DNA of 22,812 bases, from UHGV virus genome UHGV-0339689; one strand, given 5' to 3'. The notes under the pieces were generated by a model, which saw only the letters and a program-made list of their open reading frames with translations, searched no databases and was not told the DNA's origin. Source of the stretch: a virus. Each line of letters starts with the position of its first letter. Position 1 is the stretch's first letter. The position numbers and the translations under genes are program-made. Positions 9,768 through 20,437 of the stretch are shown piece by piece.

Positions 9768-10118
9768 TCACTTAAGTCGTTCACGGGCCGTCTTCGCCTT
9801 ATGACACGGCCAGCACAGACTCTGCAGATTACAGTCGGCATCAGTGCCGCCATGCGCTTTAGGGATGATGTGGTCAACGGTTTTCGCCTCACGCACCACA
9901 CCAGCACGCAGACATAACTGACACAGGCCTTTGTCACGCTTCAGGACACCCGCGCGGATACTGTCCCACTTCGAACCATAACCGCGCTGATGACGGGATT
10001 GTCCTGGCTTGTATTGCTTCCAGCCCTCGCTTTTGTGGCTTTCGCAATAGCCTGACGGATCAGTCGTGGTATTGCGGCAACCGCGAAAACGGCAGGCTTT
10101 TGGGGTTCGTGGTGGCAT
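9768..10118 (-). CDS. HNH endonuclease (packaging-associated)
   Basis: 116-aa ORF with Cys-rich zinc-finger pairs and HNH-like core (CQLC...DHIIPKAHGG...CWPCH); immediately upstream of terminase. Confidence 0.85.
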   Translation of the reverse strand: MPPRTPKACRFRGCRNTTTDPSGYCESHKSEGWKQYKPGQSRHQRGYGSKWDSIRAGVLKRDKGLCQLCLRAGVVREAKTVDHIIPKAHGGTDADCNLQSLCWPCHKAKTARERLK

Positions 10119-15632: not shown

Positions 15633-15955
15633 ACTTTCAGACCCCTCTCATGTAACCAGTGGGCTGCACGCAGCCTGGCGTTTTCCTCACCGGCAAGCAG
15701 TGAGCGGATAATCCCGACCGCCTCGCTGTCGTCGTCCTTCACCGCGGTATGAAGCGTTATCCCCCGGGCCACACCACGCTTTATCGTGATGACGCCTTTT
15801 TTCTCCAGTGCGCGAAGATGCTCCACCGCTGCATTCACTGAACGATATCCCAGCATGGTTGCCACCTCCTGATTGGTTGGCGGAAAGCCACGCTCTTTCT
15901 GGTAAGAAATCAGCATATCCAGCACCTGCTGCTGGCATTGAGTTAACGTCGTCAT
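15629..15955 (-). CDS. LexA N-terminal DNA-binding-domain protein (no peptidase domain)
   Basis: 108 aa; QQVLDMLISYQKERGFPPTNQEVATMLGYRSVNAAVEHLRALEKKGVI closely parallels the remembered LexA winged-helix domain. Confidence 0.8.
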   Translation of the reverse strand: MTTLTQCQQQVLDMLISYQKERGFPPTNQEVATMLGYRSVNAAVEHLRALEKKGVITIKRGVARGITLHTAVKDDDSEAVGIIRSLLAGEENARLRAAHWLHERGLKV

Positions 15956-16605
15956 GCCGCCATCTCCCTGACCAGTTTTTCCGCCTGCTGGCGAACCTGC
16001 GCCAGAAAGGCCTCACCACATGCCTCAAGTTCATCGCGCCCGATGTAGCTGATTGCCGGTCCCTTCCAGGTCTTGTCGAAAACAGCAATAGCACCAGCGA
16101 AGAAAGCGCCTGTCGGTACCTGCTTCTCGTCTTTCGGGATAAACCAGACAGGCAGTTCAAAACCAATACGCCCGCGAATAAAAGCAATATGATCTGCATT
16201 TTCCGGCCACCACACTTCGCTGGTGGCAGCTTTGATCAGGAAAACATAGCGCCCGCCTTTATCACGCATGGCACTGGCATGCTTCATGATGTAACGCATG
16301 CCGGTGATGTATTGCCCCTCATGCTGACTGGCGCGGCTGTATGGGGGATTACCAAAGGCAGCACCTTTAAGCTCCGCAAGACGTTCTGACCAGTCATGCG
16401 CCAGCGCGTTGTCTTCCGCCGTGTAATACGCGGCACATTTGGCGTTATCACCGTCAGTGAACAGATCCAGAACAAACGGGCCAAACAGGGTGTTAATTCC
16501 CCAGAAAATGTTGTCCGGCGTGCGCCACTGATCGCCCACTTCCTTCAGTTCATGGGCTGGTTTGTTCCGCAGTTCCACCAGCGCCTGGCAATATTTATTA
16601 CTCAT
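15952..16605 (-). CDS. Phage Dam-type N6-adenine DNA methyltransferase
   Basis: NPPY motif (AAFGNPPYS); track ORF starts at GTG 16638, but the ATG at 16605 shares a TAATG junction with the upstream gene. Confidence 0.8.
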   Translation of the reverse strand: MSNKYCQALVELRNKPAHELKEVGDQWRTPDNIFWGINTLFGPFVLDLFTDGDNAKCAAYYTAEDNALAHDWSERLAELKGAAFGNPPYSRASQHEGQYITGMRYIMKHASAMRDKGGRYVFLIKAATSEVWWPENADHIAFIRGRIGFELPVWFIPKDEKQVPTGAFFAGAIAVFDKTWKGPAISYIGRDELEACGEAFLAQVRQQAEKLVREMAA

Positions 16606-17099
16606 TAAGCCCCCACGTAATTCCCTGACAGATACCACTCTTCACCCGATGCAGCGCGCTTGCTGCTTTTCCGTAAGCACCGCTCACGACGCGCCAGAAA
16701 ATTGTTTCGCTCTTGCTGGGAGTGGCTTTCACGGAATGCCGCCATCCACACCGTTGCAGCACGACGGTATAAGCCCCTGGACTCCAGTTCTTCCGCCTGG
16801 CGGGTCAGGCACAAAATCTCCCGCGGGTCGTTAGTGCCGACATAGAAATTGCGCACAGGTCTGGTTTCACGAACTGGTTGCGGTTCCGCCTCCTGCGCTC
16901 TCTCAGTCAGGCGCGGGAAATGTCTGCGTGTATCCCCTTCACAACGGTGAGCCACACGACCACTCTGACGTAACTTGCTTGCTGACTGCAGAACGCGCTG
17001 CCGTGAGTAACCTGCAAAAGCATCCGCAATGTCTCCGGAAGTACACCCCGGATGGGCTTCAATGTATTTCTGAACTTCATTCAAAAGACTCATGATCAC
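16605..17099 (-). CDS. PerC/ANR-like transcriptional regulator
   Basis: 164 aa; LESRGLYRRAATVWMAA motif as remembered for PerC-family proteins; basic C-terminus. Confidence 0.5.
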   Translation of the reverse strand: MIMSLLNEVQKYIEAHPGCTSGDIADAFAGYSRQRVLQSASKLRQSGRVAHRCEGDTRRHFPRLTERAQEAEPQPVRETRPVRNFYVGTNDPREILCLTRQAEELESRGLYRRAATVWMAAFRESHSQQERNNFLARRERCLRKSSKRAASGEEWYLSGNYVGA

Positions 17100-18037
17100 C
17101 CCCTGAATCCTGCCGGGATCTGGCTGTAGTCCACGTTGTCGTAACTGGCTTTGAAGTACGGGTCTTCGCGTTTTTCGGTGTACGTGCTGACGGACGGCGA
17201 TAAGCGCAGGGAAAGCTCATCCCATTTTTCCCGCAGCTTCGACGGGCTGAGCACGTTACGGCACCAGAACGGATCGCGGCTGACGCGGCTGTACATCTCG
17301 CAGATTTGTTTGTGAGTACGACCATCCTGCACACACATCAGGCGAATTTCGTTTGCCCAGGCTGTCCAGTTCGGTTCTTTGGGACGAACCACCTCGCCGT
17401 CACATTCGGCGGCCTGCTCGTACAGGGCGATGATTTTTTTCCAGAGCCACTGTGCGCAGGTCAAATCATCCTGCGTTCCCCACTGGCGCTTTTTAGGGCT
17501 GAATACAACCGCATCAGGATGGCGAGTTAAAAACTCCTGTTCAGCCGTCTGCGTGTCCGGTTGCGAAGCGTCCGGACGAGAAGTTTTTTTATCTGACGGA
17601 TCATGTTTTGATTTTACTGACGGATCCCCGCCAGATTCTGACGGGTGAAAACCCGCTTTTTTGCCAGATTTCGACGCATCAAATTTTGACGGGTCAGATT
17701 TTGATGCGTCAGATTTTGACGGGTCAGAATCTGACAGTTGAGAAAATGCCGCTGCCTGAAGCTTCGCAACGTTAAGCTGATAAACATTCGACGCATTGCG
17801 GTTACCCTGGCGACGCGCCTTACGCGTTAACCAGCCTTCTGCTTCCAGCCGTGCGATAGCCGTTCTGACGGTACTCATCCCCGCGCCAATCTGACGGGCA
17901 ATGGTTTCAATTGATGGCCAGCACACACCTTCGTCATTACTGAAATCAGCCAGGCGGGCCATAATTGCCACGCTGGATAATTTCATGCCTGACGCAGCGC
18001 AACCATCCCATACATAGCCGGTTAATTTAGTGCTCAT
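17096..18037 (-). CDS. Replication initiator, lambda O-like (N-terminal HTH, internal iteron-encoded repeat linker)
   Basis: 313 aa; N-terminal winged-helix/HTH; central SDxSKSD repeat peptide encoded by the DNA iterons; conserved phage C-terminal domain. Confidence 0.8.
   Translation of the reverse strand: MSTKLTGYVWDGCAASGMKLSSVAIMARLADFSNDEGVCWPSIETIARQIGAGMSTVRTAIARLEAEGWLTRKARRQGNRNASNVYQLNVAKLQAAAFSQLSDSDPSKSDASKSDPSKFDASKSGKKAGFHPSESGGDPSVKSKHDPSDKKTSRPDASQPDTQTAEQEFLTRHPDAVVFSPKKRQWGTQDDLTCAQWLWKKIIALYEQAAECDGEVVRPKEPNWTAWANEIRLMCVQDGRTHKQICEMYSRVSRDPFWCRNVLSPSKLREKWDELSLRLSPSVSTYTEKREDPYFKASYDNVDYSQIPAGFRG
17591..17729. repeat. Origin iterons (core TGACGG(G/A)TC), including three exact-period 15-bp tandem units at 17685-17729
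   Basis: TTTTGACGGGTCAGA / TTTTGATGCGTCAGA / TTTTGACGGGTCAGA in tandem plus four degenerate copies upstream and adjacent T-rich tracts, all inside the O-like gene. Confidence 0.75.
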
Positions 18038-18206: not shown

Positions 18207-18385
18207 AGGACTGTCTCCTTCTGCCGGTTGAAATCACCCACAGCCCACTCTGCAAAGCTGTGGGTTACAATTTCCCTGTCACCTGGTACATTCACTGCAT
18301 AGCAATATTCCACCTTCGCTTTTCCACCCGGTACAGGAAGCGCAATCAGTTGCGAGCGACGGTAGTGTGTTGTTAAACTGTTCAT
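18047..18385 (-). CDS. Hypothetical protein in cII position (112 aa; C-terminal third may be out of frame)
   Basis: ATGA overlap with upstream YdaT-like gene; N-terminal 60 residues protein-like, C-terminus Ser/Thr-rich and low complexity. Confidence 0.45.
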
Positions 18386-18951
18386 GCGTTAGTTTCTCCA
18401 CAACCAGAAGCAATCGACGCCACGACGCCCGGAGCTGCACACTCGCGGGCGTCATTACTTTCTGAAATGCAAAAAATTTTGTAGACAAGTGCTGCATGCT
18501 CCTGCAGCTTCGAAATTGAGAGATACAGCTCGTCGTTAATTGCTGTCTTCTCATGCGGTTCCACTACACCGTCTTCGATTGCTGAACGAATCTGTTTTGA
18601 ATAACTGCCGATCTGTTCAATGACTTCCAGCAGACGCTGGTTAATATCGGCGTTGTCCACATCCTCGACGTCAGGAAGAGACACAAAGACGCCATTTGCA
18701 GACTGCGCCACAGCATCAGCAATGAAGTGAGTGCCACCAGCACGCTGTAAAACCATTGCCCATCCCAGCGGGAAAATCTGATCGCCATCTGCACGAAGGC
18801 GGTTGAATAAAGCGTTTTCTGTTACATCGAGCCAGTCAGCCGCTTCAGCGTAACCACCCGGCAACGCCGCGATAGTTTTTCTGACAGCTTTCACGTACCA
18901 CTCAGGCTGTTTTTCTATTTTCCAGTGATGCTTACCCACGATTAGCCTCAT
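18382..18951 (-). CDS. YdaT-like (CII-like fold) prophage protein
   Basis: 189 aa immediately downstream of cro-like gene, as in Rac-type immunity regions; assignment from recalled family resemblance. Confidence 0.5.
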
Positions 18952-19273: not shown

Positions 19274-19948
19274 ATGAAAACAATCCATGACATCCGGCGG
19301 TCTAACGCCAGAAAACTGAGAGATGGTGTTGGCGGGAATTCTTCCTTTGCCACTATGATTGATCGCGAGCCAACCCAGACCAGCAGGTTTATGGGAGATG
19401 GTGCTACTAAAAATATCGGTGACAGCATGGCACGACACATCGAAAAATGTTTCGACCTGCCTGTCGGATGGCTCGATCAAGAACACCAGACAACGAACAT
19501 CACAAAAAAACCTGATGTTTCAATCACTAATAAACAAATCACATTAGTCCCTGTCATATCATGGGTACAGGCCGGAGCATGGAAAGAAGTTGGATATTCT
19601 GAGGTTGATTTGAGCACAGCAGAAACGTATCCCTGCCCTGTCCCCTGTGGGGAAATGACTTATATCTTGCGGGTGATAGGTGATTCAATGATTGATGAGT
19701 ACCGCCCGGGAGACATGATTTTTGTCGATCCTGAAGTACCTGCCTGCCACGGTGACGACGTTATTGCATTGATGCACGATACAGGTGAAACCACCTTCAA
19801 AAGGTTGATAGAAGATGGGACACAGCGTTATCTCAAAGCGTTAAACCCAAACTGGCCTGAGCCTTACATTAAGATCAACGGTAATTGCTCTATAATTGGT
19901 ACAGTGATTTTCTCAGGAAAACCAAGAAGATACAAAATCAAAGCCTAA
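19274..19948 (+). CDS. cI: CI-type repressor with S24 (LexA-like) autopeptidase domain
   Basis: 224 aa; Ala-Gly site (VQAGAW), catalytic Ser in GDSM and Lys in TFKRL; divergent from cro. Confidence 0.85.
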   Translation: MKTIHDIRRSNARKLRDGVGGNSSFATMIDREPTQTSRFMGDGATKNIGDSMARHIEKCFDLPVGWLDQEHQTTNITKKPDVSITNKQITLVPVISWVQAGAWKEVGYSEVDLSTAETYPCPVPCGEMTYILRVIGDSMIDEYRPGDMIFVDPEVPACHGDDVIALMHDTGETTFKRLIEDGTQRYLKALNPNWPEPYIKINGNCSIIGTVIFSGKPRRYKIKA

Positions 19949-19987: not shown

Positions 19988-20016
19988 TTGACAATGTACC
20001 TTTGAGATACATAATG
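19988..20016 (+). promoter_or_regulatory. Candidate PL-like promoter (-35 TTGACA, 16-17 bp, -10 CATAAT) with two TGTACC operator-like half sites
   Basis: Consensus -35 at 19988-19993; AATGTACC repeated at 19993-20000 and 20015-20022. Confidence 0.4.
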
Positions 20017-20437
20017 TACCCAAGAGAAACAACAAACAGGCAGGACGTCCACGAAGTAGCCGCCTGGGGCATATGAAGTCCAAGATGATTCGTTAGCAAC
20101 AAAACGCCCATAGGACGCTTCGCTCTTTAACAATTTGAATATTTTCAGCGTCAATGATCTGTTTAGCTCCCTACAAGTAAATGTAGCGTAGCACCATGAT
20201 AAATCCTGCTAGTGTTTAGTTAAAAATCGCGCGAGAGCAAGAACGACGTGAGGGCAGGCAATATTGATAGTGTTATTGCTATTAGTTTATCAAAAATATT
20301 TAGACGACCCAGATGAATATTTTTAATACATACTCCCCCTAATTTAACAGGAGTAAATGTTGATGAATAACGAGACATCTATACTCAACAATTGTATGAT
20401 ATGAACAATTATATAACATAATGTAGGAAAAATAAAA

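Follow-up and report, generated by a model that had tools for sequence, protein, structure and literature searches.

A probable replication origin inside the O-like initiator gene of an SfIV-type lambdoid prophage

The origin of phage lambda, ori-lambda, lies within gene O of lambda and phage 434 and combines four ~19-bp dyad-symmetric iterons with an AT-rich region, on which the O-some forms. For lambda, it is established that initiator-specific repeats within the initiator's own gene make up the origin (PMC7466680); for gene 18 of phages P22 and L, such repeats have been read from sequence and were assigned as an origin from sequence together with genetics (PMC8022706). Here, we examine UHGV virus genome UHGV-0339689, analysed as one 22,812-nucleotide stretch of DNA (hereafter the window), in which an O-like initiator gene of 313 codons (open reading frame 17096..18037, minus strand) carries a repeat-bearing element at ~17565-17737. 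This element very probably serves an SfIV-type lambdoid prophage as its replication origin, embedded in the disordered linker of the initiator; we infer initiator binding and origin function from comparative sequence analysis and structure prediction.

A sequence-only reading of this DNA had proposed a lambda-type origin within an O-like gene, and that proposal is upheld by (i) the match of the protein to phrog_391, (ii) the homology of its C-domain to 434 O, (iii) the position of the element in the linker, (iv) conservation of the DNA, (v) linkage of the element to the N-domain, and (vi) the AT-rich block. The searchable literature yielded no described origin for SfIV, SfII or SfV or for the initiator family, although an earlier description is possible; the SfIV genome paper lists no more than a 'replication module'. 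The 'P27' of PMC7466680 was considered and set aside: its O protein is lambda-like, and it does not belong to this family.

Initiator, sites and AT-rich block

The whole initiator matches phrog_391 ('replication initiation O-like'; PHROGs, E 1.6e-135). An AlphaFold2 model built with 48 homologues shows a folded winged helix over residues 1-98, residues 102-156 with a predicted local distance difference test score (pLDDT) of <50, and a confident helical C-domain over residues 163-280. On the minus strand, these correspond to an N-terminal winged-helix domain at 17744-18037 (codons 1-98; also recognised by Pfam), a disordered linker at 17570-17734 (codons ~102-156), and a C-domain at 17198-17551 (codons ~163-280) whose homology to lambda O comes from BLASTP; residues ~130-277 align to lambda/434 O at 7e-26, and tblastn agrees. 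The top Pfam match of the initiator is the HTH_36 winged helix at residues 23-70, with RP-C matching only weakly (E 0.0046), and a published HHpred analysis places the N-terminus of lambda O in the same Pfam family, HTH_36 (PMC5509034). The best Foldseek matches of the N-domain in the PDB are MarR/ArsR-type winged-helix DNA-binding proteins (E ~3e-3), several of them solved on DNA; a PDB sequence search returned weak MarR matches only and no solved relative. Codons ~101-153 cover both the repeats and the AT-rich block, with the sites at codons 101-136 and the AT-rich block continuing to ~153.

The sequence-only reading had counted seven copies of a TGACGG(G/A)TC core. These repeats are real and lie where they were placed, but the count resolves into four exact and four degenerate copies. 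Exact TGACGGRTC occurs in the interval at 17594, 17618, 17687 and 17717, with one more copy in the 22.8-kb window at 10053; 0.38 copies were expected in the window from shuffled sequence against the 5 observed, and 0/100 shuffles reached 5. The degenerate cores are TGACGGGTG at 17639, CGACGCATC at 17672, TGATGCGTC at 17702 and TGACAGTTG at 17732. Of the three copies said to stand in exact 15-bp tandem register (17685-17729), the period is genuine, but the middle copy differs at 2/9 core bases. Tandem Repeats Finder (TRF) independently reports a period of 15 with 4.3 copies and 81% match over 17665-17728, alongside an alternative period of 30 with 2.1 copies and 88% match over the same bases. 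As proposed, the repeats lie inside coding sequence and are mirrored by SDxSKSD peptides, all copies being in frame and encoding D-P-S or D-A-S, and T-rich tracts flank them on the plus strand, with GC content dropping to 0.40 at 17580-17639 and 17660-17719. The element is present in the interval originally given (17591-17729), but as a whole it is slightly wider, at ~17565-17737.

A scan with one genome per species gave 80 loci, from which we could use ~73-78 distinct full-length genes from Escherichia, Citrobacter, Klebsiella, Kosakonia, Yersinia, Pantoea, Providencia, Proteus, Rahnella and other genera; N-domain identity in this set ranges over 52-100%. In a profile of 326 units from 68 loci, phased on the TCA codon alone, information is high at TCTGA and TCArAw and low at the 4 nucleotides between them. 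On this profile, a 13-bp palindrome, GTCARAWTYTGAC, of the form (G)TCARAWTYTGA(C) and centred between the cores of the sequence-only reading, gives the better description of the conserved unit; the TGACGGRTC core itself straddles the low-information spacer between palindromes. Allowing <=2 mismatches, the 13-bp palindrome GTCAGAWTTTGAC starts at 17630, 17663, 17678, 17693, 17708 and 17723 and nowhere else in the window. Five of these, found by pattern search at 17723-17735, 17708-17720, 17693-17705, 17678-17690 and 17663-17675, form a tandem array of proposed iterons (17663..17735) with a 15-bp period and 2-bp variable spacers. The sixth (17630-17642) lies within a 21-bp palindrome, ACCCGTCAGAATCTGGCGGGG on the coding strand, at 17626..17646 (centre 17636). 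No other site in the element is as strongly conserved as this larger palindrome, which has nearly every position at 1.7-2.0 bits over 69 loci and symmetric low-information positions at +/-5-6. Between it and the array runs an A-rich spacer (17647..17662; coding strand GGCAAAAAAGCGGGTTTT) that is weakly conserved, at 0.3-1.2 bits for offsets -30 to -16. A terminator-like hairpin with a T-run (CGGGTGAAAACCCG CTTTTTTGCC) also occupies 17642-17665 on the plus strand, antisense to the initiator gene and within this spacer; its stem (17642-17655) is not kept in phiNP, Klebsiella phage 1 or YeP2, and it is probably a chance structure.

In 73 homologous linkers, the core CARAWTYTG occurs at 314x the density seen across 360 kb of flanks, and each linker holds 1-8 sites, most commonly 4-5. 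Among near-identical E. coli phages, the array differs by 15-bp units, giving proteins of 308, 313, 318 and 323 amino acids, and substitutions cluster at the x of DxS, i.e., in the spacer; the IMG/VR scan, which returned only 100%-identical N-domains, informs this copy-number variation. Two dyad-symmetric registers can be drawn through such an array. On sequence grounds, we favour GTCA-N5-TGAC over TGAC-N2-GTCA as the binding register because its half-site centres lie 9 bp apart, because distant clades keep a form of this type (CTCCAGAATCTGGAG, GTCCAAAATCTGGAC), and because the unbiased unit profile selects it. TGAC-NN-GTCA had been our first idea for the binding palindrome and was disfavoured by that profile and by the distant clades, with the L169 clade dissenting.

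Downstream of the sites in the direction of transcription lies a conserved AT-rich block (17579..17625), a candidate unwinding region, with an AT fraction of 0.64 against 0.48 for the gene (70 loci); its conservation may reach ~17565, as third-position information remains high through codons 151-160. Of the copies counted in the sequence-only reading, those at 17594 and 17618 are the two CCGTCAG half-sites of this block, which also has a pair of GATC sites (17599-17602 and 17623-17626) spaced by 24 bp. All 70 loci contain GATC, at 1-3 per locus (mode 2), with the 24-bp spacing in 57 pairs and a density 10x that of the rest of the gene; the Asp codon at these sites is always GAT, while the tandem units mostly use GAC. 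A Dam gene lies 1-2 genes downstream of the initiator in the window phage, Klebsiella phage 1 LV-2017, phiNP, YeP2, SfV and mEp460_4F5. The conservation of this GATC pair, along with a phage Dam gene nearby, hints at control by methylation. No DnaA box (TTWTNCACA, <=1 mismatch) was found between 17446 and 18319, the window-wide count being not above chance, and no consensus site for integration host factor was found in the element.

Selection on the linker DNA and competing explanations

Third-position information in codon alignments is 1.1-1.2 bits over the first ten codons, runs at 0.3-0.9 bits along both folded domains, and climbs to 1.1-1.55 bits only at codons 101-160, a peak shared by two subsets (n=14 and n=50) whose C-domains differ. 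Conserved N-domain columns are saturated for synonymous codons (mean codon entropy 1.44 bits, with Ser columns using 5-6 codons), whereas codon entropy in the linker block is ~0. Within the block F-D/H-P-S-E-S-G-G-D-P-S-V-x-S-x-x-D-P-S, codons are practically invariant: TTT 68/68, GAA 66/66, TCT 71/73, GAT 73/73, CCG 69/73, TCA 60/60, GTA 72/72, TCA 65/65, GAT 62/62 and TCA 56/56. The TTT, GAA and TCT codons fall in the 21-bp palindrome, and the GAT, TCA and GTA codons in the AT-rich block. Mean information at codon positions 1/2/3 is 1.52/1.72/0.61 bits for the N-domain and 1.59/1.54/1.52 bits for the linker block. Amino-acid conservation in the linker is below that of the N-domain while third-position conservation is above it. 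Ser is encoded by TCA in 431/500 cases within DxS units as against 427/2245 elsewhere. In phiP27 and its relative L074, one motif copy (TTGACCCTTCAGAATCTGG) stands in another frame and is read as VLTLQNL or VFTRQNLT; in YeP2, GAC GGG TCA replaces GAC CCG TCA, changing Pro to Gly with the TGAC/GTCA arms intact. Since linker third positions are frozen, flanking domains are saturated and a frame-shifted copy is kept, the comparison identifies the element as a cis-acting DNA sequence, on which purifying selection acts in many genera at first, second and third codon positions alike, and not as a by-product of the peptide repeat.

The same N-domain and site set are joined to at least three C-domains, namely lambda-O-like, Phg_2220_C and phiP27-like, with phiNP and YeP2 combining the window-type N-domain and linker with a Phg_2220_C C-domain. 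Conversely, mEp460_4F5 (L166) carries the window's C-domain at 97% nucleotide identity together with a different N-domain and different linker repeats. As the repeat set changes with the N-domain and stays when the C-domain changes, the element is inherited with the winged-helix N-domain, independently of the C-domain. Variants of the recognition helix at residues 58-59 (R58/T59; STIRG, STVIT and STVYG versus STVRT) carry altered site flanks, e.g., CTCCAGAATCTGGAG and GTCCAAAATCTGGAC, with TCCAGA/TCCAAA half-sites, and phiP27 keeps STVRT and keeps GTCAGA plus TTCAGA. We regard this covariation as suggestive but imperfect: in the main clade, too, one arm of the conserved palindrome reads GCCAGA.

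Two other lambdoid initiators in these comparisons, whose N-domains are unrelated, bear repeat sets of their own. The mEp460_4F5 linker (codons ~105-150) has four copies of rGGTCAAArtG, one out of frame. SfV orf39 (L167) has a third N-domain and a third repeat set at codons ~90-140, with GGTAGTGCA repeats and GAACCAGTCAA twice. An origin in the linker looks like a general rule for such modules.

Might conservation of this DNA reflect a different cis element, such as an operator serving autoregulation or a different regulator of phage or host, an mRNA structure controlling translation of the initiator, or a recombination joint between N- and C-domains? The strand folds far better than shuffled sequence (z = -5.4), palindrome flanks shift on both arms together in distant clades, which would suit a hairpin too, and mosaic junctions with phiNP and mEp460_4F5 fall right at the end of the conserved block. 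Against these stand half-sites conserved in sequence (CAGA/TCTG invariant), beyond mere complementarity, and the lack of any Rfam match or of a promoter-like site in a sigma-70 promoter scan. A recombination joint would need no dyad symmetry, AT-rich block or GATC pair, and frequent recombination is better seen as a consequence than as a cause of origin conservation, given that adjacent N-domain codons are synonymously saturated. Both the family to which the gene belongs and the place of the element within it speak specifically for an origin, and we judge a different cis element to be improbable.

A further alternative is that the repeats are the mere DNA shadow of a disordered SDxSKS peptide linker that arose by recent duplication, the DNA itself having no function. 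The reading frame shared by 313/314 sites, the predicted disorder of the linker, and the drift of copy number in 5-residue steps among close relatives would all fit such an origin for the repeats. It fails to explain why synonymous positions are nearly invariant across genera in the linker and saturated in the flanking domains, why the linker surpasses the N-domain at third positions while its amino acids are less conserved, why the most variable residue, the x of DxS, coincides with the spacer between palindromes, and why a frame-shifted copy retains the DNA motif; we therefore hold it to be very unlikely. Synonymous constraint from an overlapping gene, e.g., a 60-amino-acid open reading frame at 17614-17796 on the minus strand (...TRQNLTHQNL...), is scarcely credible: open alternative frames do cross the repeats on both strands, but stop-free repeat units yield them automatically, both alternative coding-strand frames stop inside the conserved block (CAG TAA, AGA TAA) with conservation running past, and coding overlap would not give the observed dyad symmetry.

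Proposed mechanism and prophage context

In our model of a replication origin, N-domain dimers would bind the palindromes, whose GTCA/TGAC half-sites, 9 bp apart, are separated by about one helical turn, in the manner of MarR-type winged-helix dimers. Closely packed dimers could then form an O-some-like nucleoprotein complex which, together with transcription across the gene from the pR-like promoter, would destabilise the adjacent AT-rich block. The lambda-O-like C-domain and a DnaT-like tail might next recruit host DnaB-DnaC, a route proposed because the phage encodes no P, DnaC or DnaB; this helicase recruitment step is pure conjecture. Firing may also be tuned through Dam methylation of the two GATC sites, carried out either by the host's enzyme or by the phage's own, whose gene lies two places downstream.

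Several observations weigh against an origin of this kind: (i) experimental work on binding or origin function for this initiator family was not found in the searchable literature; (ii) the initiator N-domain and that of lambda/434 O align with an hhalign probability of 1%, from a shallow 5-sequence profile; (iii) the 15-bp period would set neighbouring dimers on nearly opposite faces of the helix, and is tighter than the spacing of the phage 434 iterons, whose starts are 20-24 bp apart; (iv) TGAC-N2-GTCA has dyad symmetry as well and, in the divergent clade L169, is conserved better as a unit; (v) the AT content of the AT-rich block is just 64%; (vi) out-of-frame copies of the motif are rare, at 1/314 sites in genome loci plus phiP27; and (vii) annotation of the window genes by Pfam/PHROGs yielded no P, DnaC-like or DnaB-like gene.

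The C-terminal tail of the initiator, SQIPAGFRG (17099..17125, minus strand), is a candidate handle for the host helicase-loading machinery. In BLASTP against MG1655 DnaT, it agrees at 8/9 residues with the very end of the E. coli protein (SQIPPGFRG), and such a tail is found on 31/73 homologues, across different C-domains, and also on SfV orf39. The restart protein DnaT appears to bring DnaB-DnaC into the primosome, through a mechanism that is undefined (PMC5778457). Given that the phage encodes no loader, a DnaT-like hand-off to host DnaB-DnaC would be a reasonable guess. A more elaborate scenario is a loader-free lambda-type origin in which the initiator mimics DnaT through its tail and a DnaT_C/lambda-O-like C-domain and thereby passes host DnaB-DnaC straight to the unwound origin, firing is gated at the two strictly conserved GATC sites by Dam methylation or SeqA binding, and the phage Dam overrides host control. 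We consider this rather unlikely; if true, it would be a hybrid of ori-lambda, the replication-restart primosome and oriC/P1-type methylation logic, and would bear on the idea that dnaT-dnaC was domesticated from such phage modules.

A homologue in NZ_CP148542.1 (L169; 1675-2634) ends in SEPDTEIPPGFRG, to be compared with SEPDSQIPPGFRG of DnaT, and is followed by a gene annotated only as 'ATP-binding protein' that is possibly a DnaC/IstB-like loader; this order of initiator and then loader candidate would mirror the host dnaT-dnaC operon. The record is a 15,977-bp circle deposited as a plasmid, with no typed plasmid replicon, comprising a lambdoid immunity, replication, nin, Q and lysis region only, and its initiator homologue is frameshifted within the linker. 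The record is suggestive of an autonomous circle of the lambda-dv kind, but it may equally have arisen in assembly from a defective prophage that had over-replicated. A search of plasmids for the initiator otherwise found mostly prophages inside misassigned or large records. For L074, the phiP27 relative, the annotation places a DnaC-like loader and a DnaB helicase downstream.

The window as a whole is an SfIV/SfII-type lambdoid prophage. Bases 17096-18037 share 99.8% nucleotide identity with the 'replication protein' gene of Shigella phage SfIV and are 98-99% identical to many E. coli phages. The minus-strand genes form the early-right operon, divergent from a cI-like S24 repressor gene (19274-19948, plus strand): a Cro/YdaS-like gene, a CII-like gene (18382-18951), and an open reading frame of 112 codons between the latter and the initiator gene, all on the minus strand. 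Downstream of the initiator follow a PerC-like gene, the Dam methylase gene (15952-16638, minus strand; two genes downstream), and genes for a repressor resembling the LexA DNA-binding domain, RusA, a KilA-N-type regulator, an HNH endonuclease and Q, with lysis and head genes after Q. The first of these, at 16605-17099 on the minus strand, overlaps the stop codon of the initiator by 4 bp and occupies the slot where lambda carries P; its N-terminal part has weak MarR/BilQ-like helix-turn-helix matches and its C-terminal part is a PerC/ANR-type activator domain. Just beyond the 3' end of the cI-like repressor gene, TRF reports two tandem copies of a 20-bp unit at 19993-20031 (AATGTACCCAAGAGAAACAT, 78% match).

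The initiator family comprises at least 2367 clusters at E <= 1e-10 in one search, some with thousands of members, and most source-named matches are labelled merely 'helix-turn-helix domain-containing protein'. Protein searches with the N-domain alone returned mainly fragments and fusion products. In many E. coli genomes, truncated N-domains of ~80 residues are fused in frame to RusA or other phage proteins (P0043-P0055 and P0064), and at loci L058 and L082 the match is limited to residues 1-79, after which the frame enters unrelated sequence. These forms resemble products of deletion in decaying prophages, broken close to where the N-domain ends or the repeats begin.

Comparison with described origins

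This initiator family is very common in Enterobacterales prophages. Recognising the linker as an origin would give SfIV/SfII-type and related phages a defined cis element with a site consensus, and would explain linker DNA frozen across genera. It would further make the N-domain plus origin one exchangeable specificity module, and it carries the caution that the linker is not freely recodable. The initiator-only layout, with its DnaT-like tail and GATC pair, would offer a simple system for the study of P-less recruitment of host DnaB-DnaC.

Among described systems, ori-lambda shares with this locus (i) a mid-gene origin in the linker between a DNA-binding N-domain and the C-domain, (ii) several sites of dyad symmetry with an AT-rich block on their transcriptionally downstream side (PMC7466680), (iii) a homologous C-domain (7e-26), and (iv) placement in a pR-type early operon, downstream of cro- and cII-like genes. 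The positions also compare well, with window codons ~101-152/313 set against codons 117-145/299 for the annotated ori-lambda iterons of phage 434. The differences are that the window N-domain is not detectably related to that of lambda O; that the window site is GTCARAWTYTGAC and the lambda iteron ATCCCTCAAAACGAGGGA (oligonucleotide table, PMC7466680); that the window family has a variable number of sites (1-8); that its AT-rich block bears a conserved GATC pair; and that a DnaT-like C-terminal tail is found in place of a P gene. No helicase partner of the lambda P or P22 gp12 type stands beside the initiator gene of this initiator-only module, which lowers its membership in a strict lambda O/P system but not in the origin-in-gene design.

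The origins in gene 18 of P22 and L are similar in that a lambdoid initiator has its own short-repeat family in the coding region. There, however, the repeat of phage L is an 11-bp sequence, TGTCCAACGGA, in six copies, and the initiator is paired with the phage's own DnaB-type helicase (gp12).

Iteron plasmids (RepA, pi and RepE) resemble the window in having a winged-helix initiator, repeats beside an AT-rich unwinding element, and variation in repeat copy number. Plasmid iterons are ~17-22-bp direct repeats that usually lie outside the rep gene and are bound by monomers, whereas the window sites are palindromic, 15 bp apart and within coding sequence; the initiator has no Pfam match to Rep_3, and the locus does not fall among iteron plasmids of the Rep_3/RepA type. 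In oriC and P1 oriR, GATC sites occur in the unwinding regions and are controlled by Dam and SeqA. The window likewise has conserved GATC sites in its AT-rich part, with a phage Dam gene close by, but these sites are only two, and the element holds no DnaA boxes within one mismatch.

Ultimately, the comparison gives good support to viewing the element as a further example of the known lambda design, one that differs in its N-domain, in the sequence and packing of its sites, and in having no loader gene.

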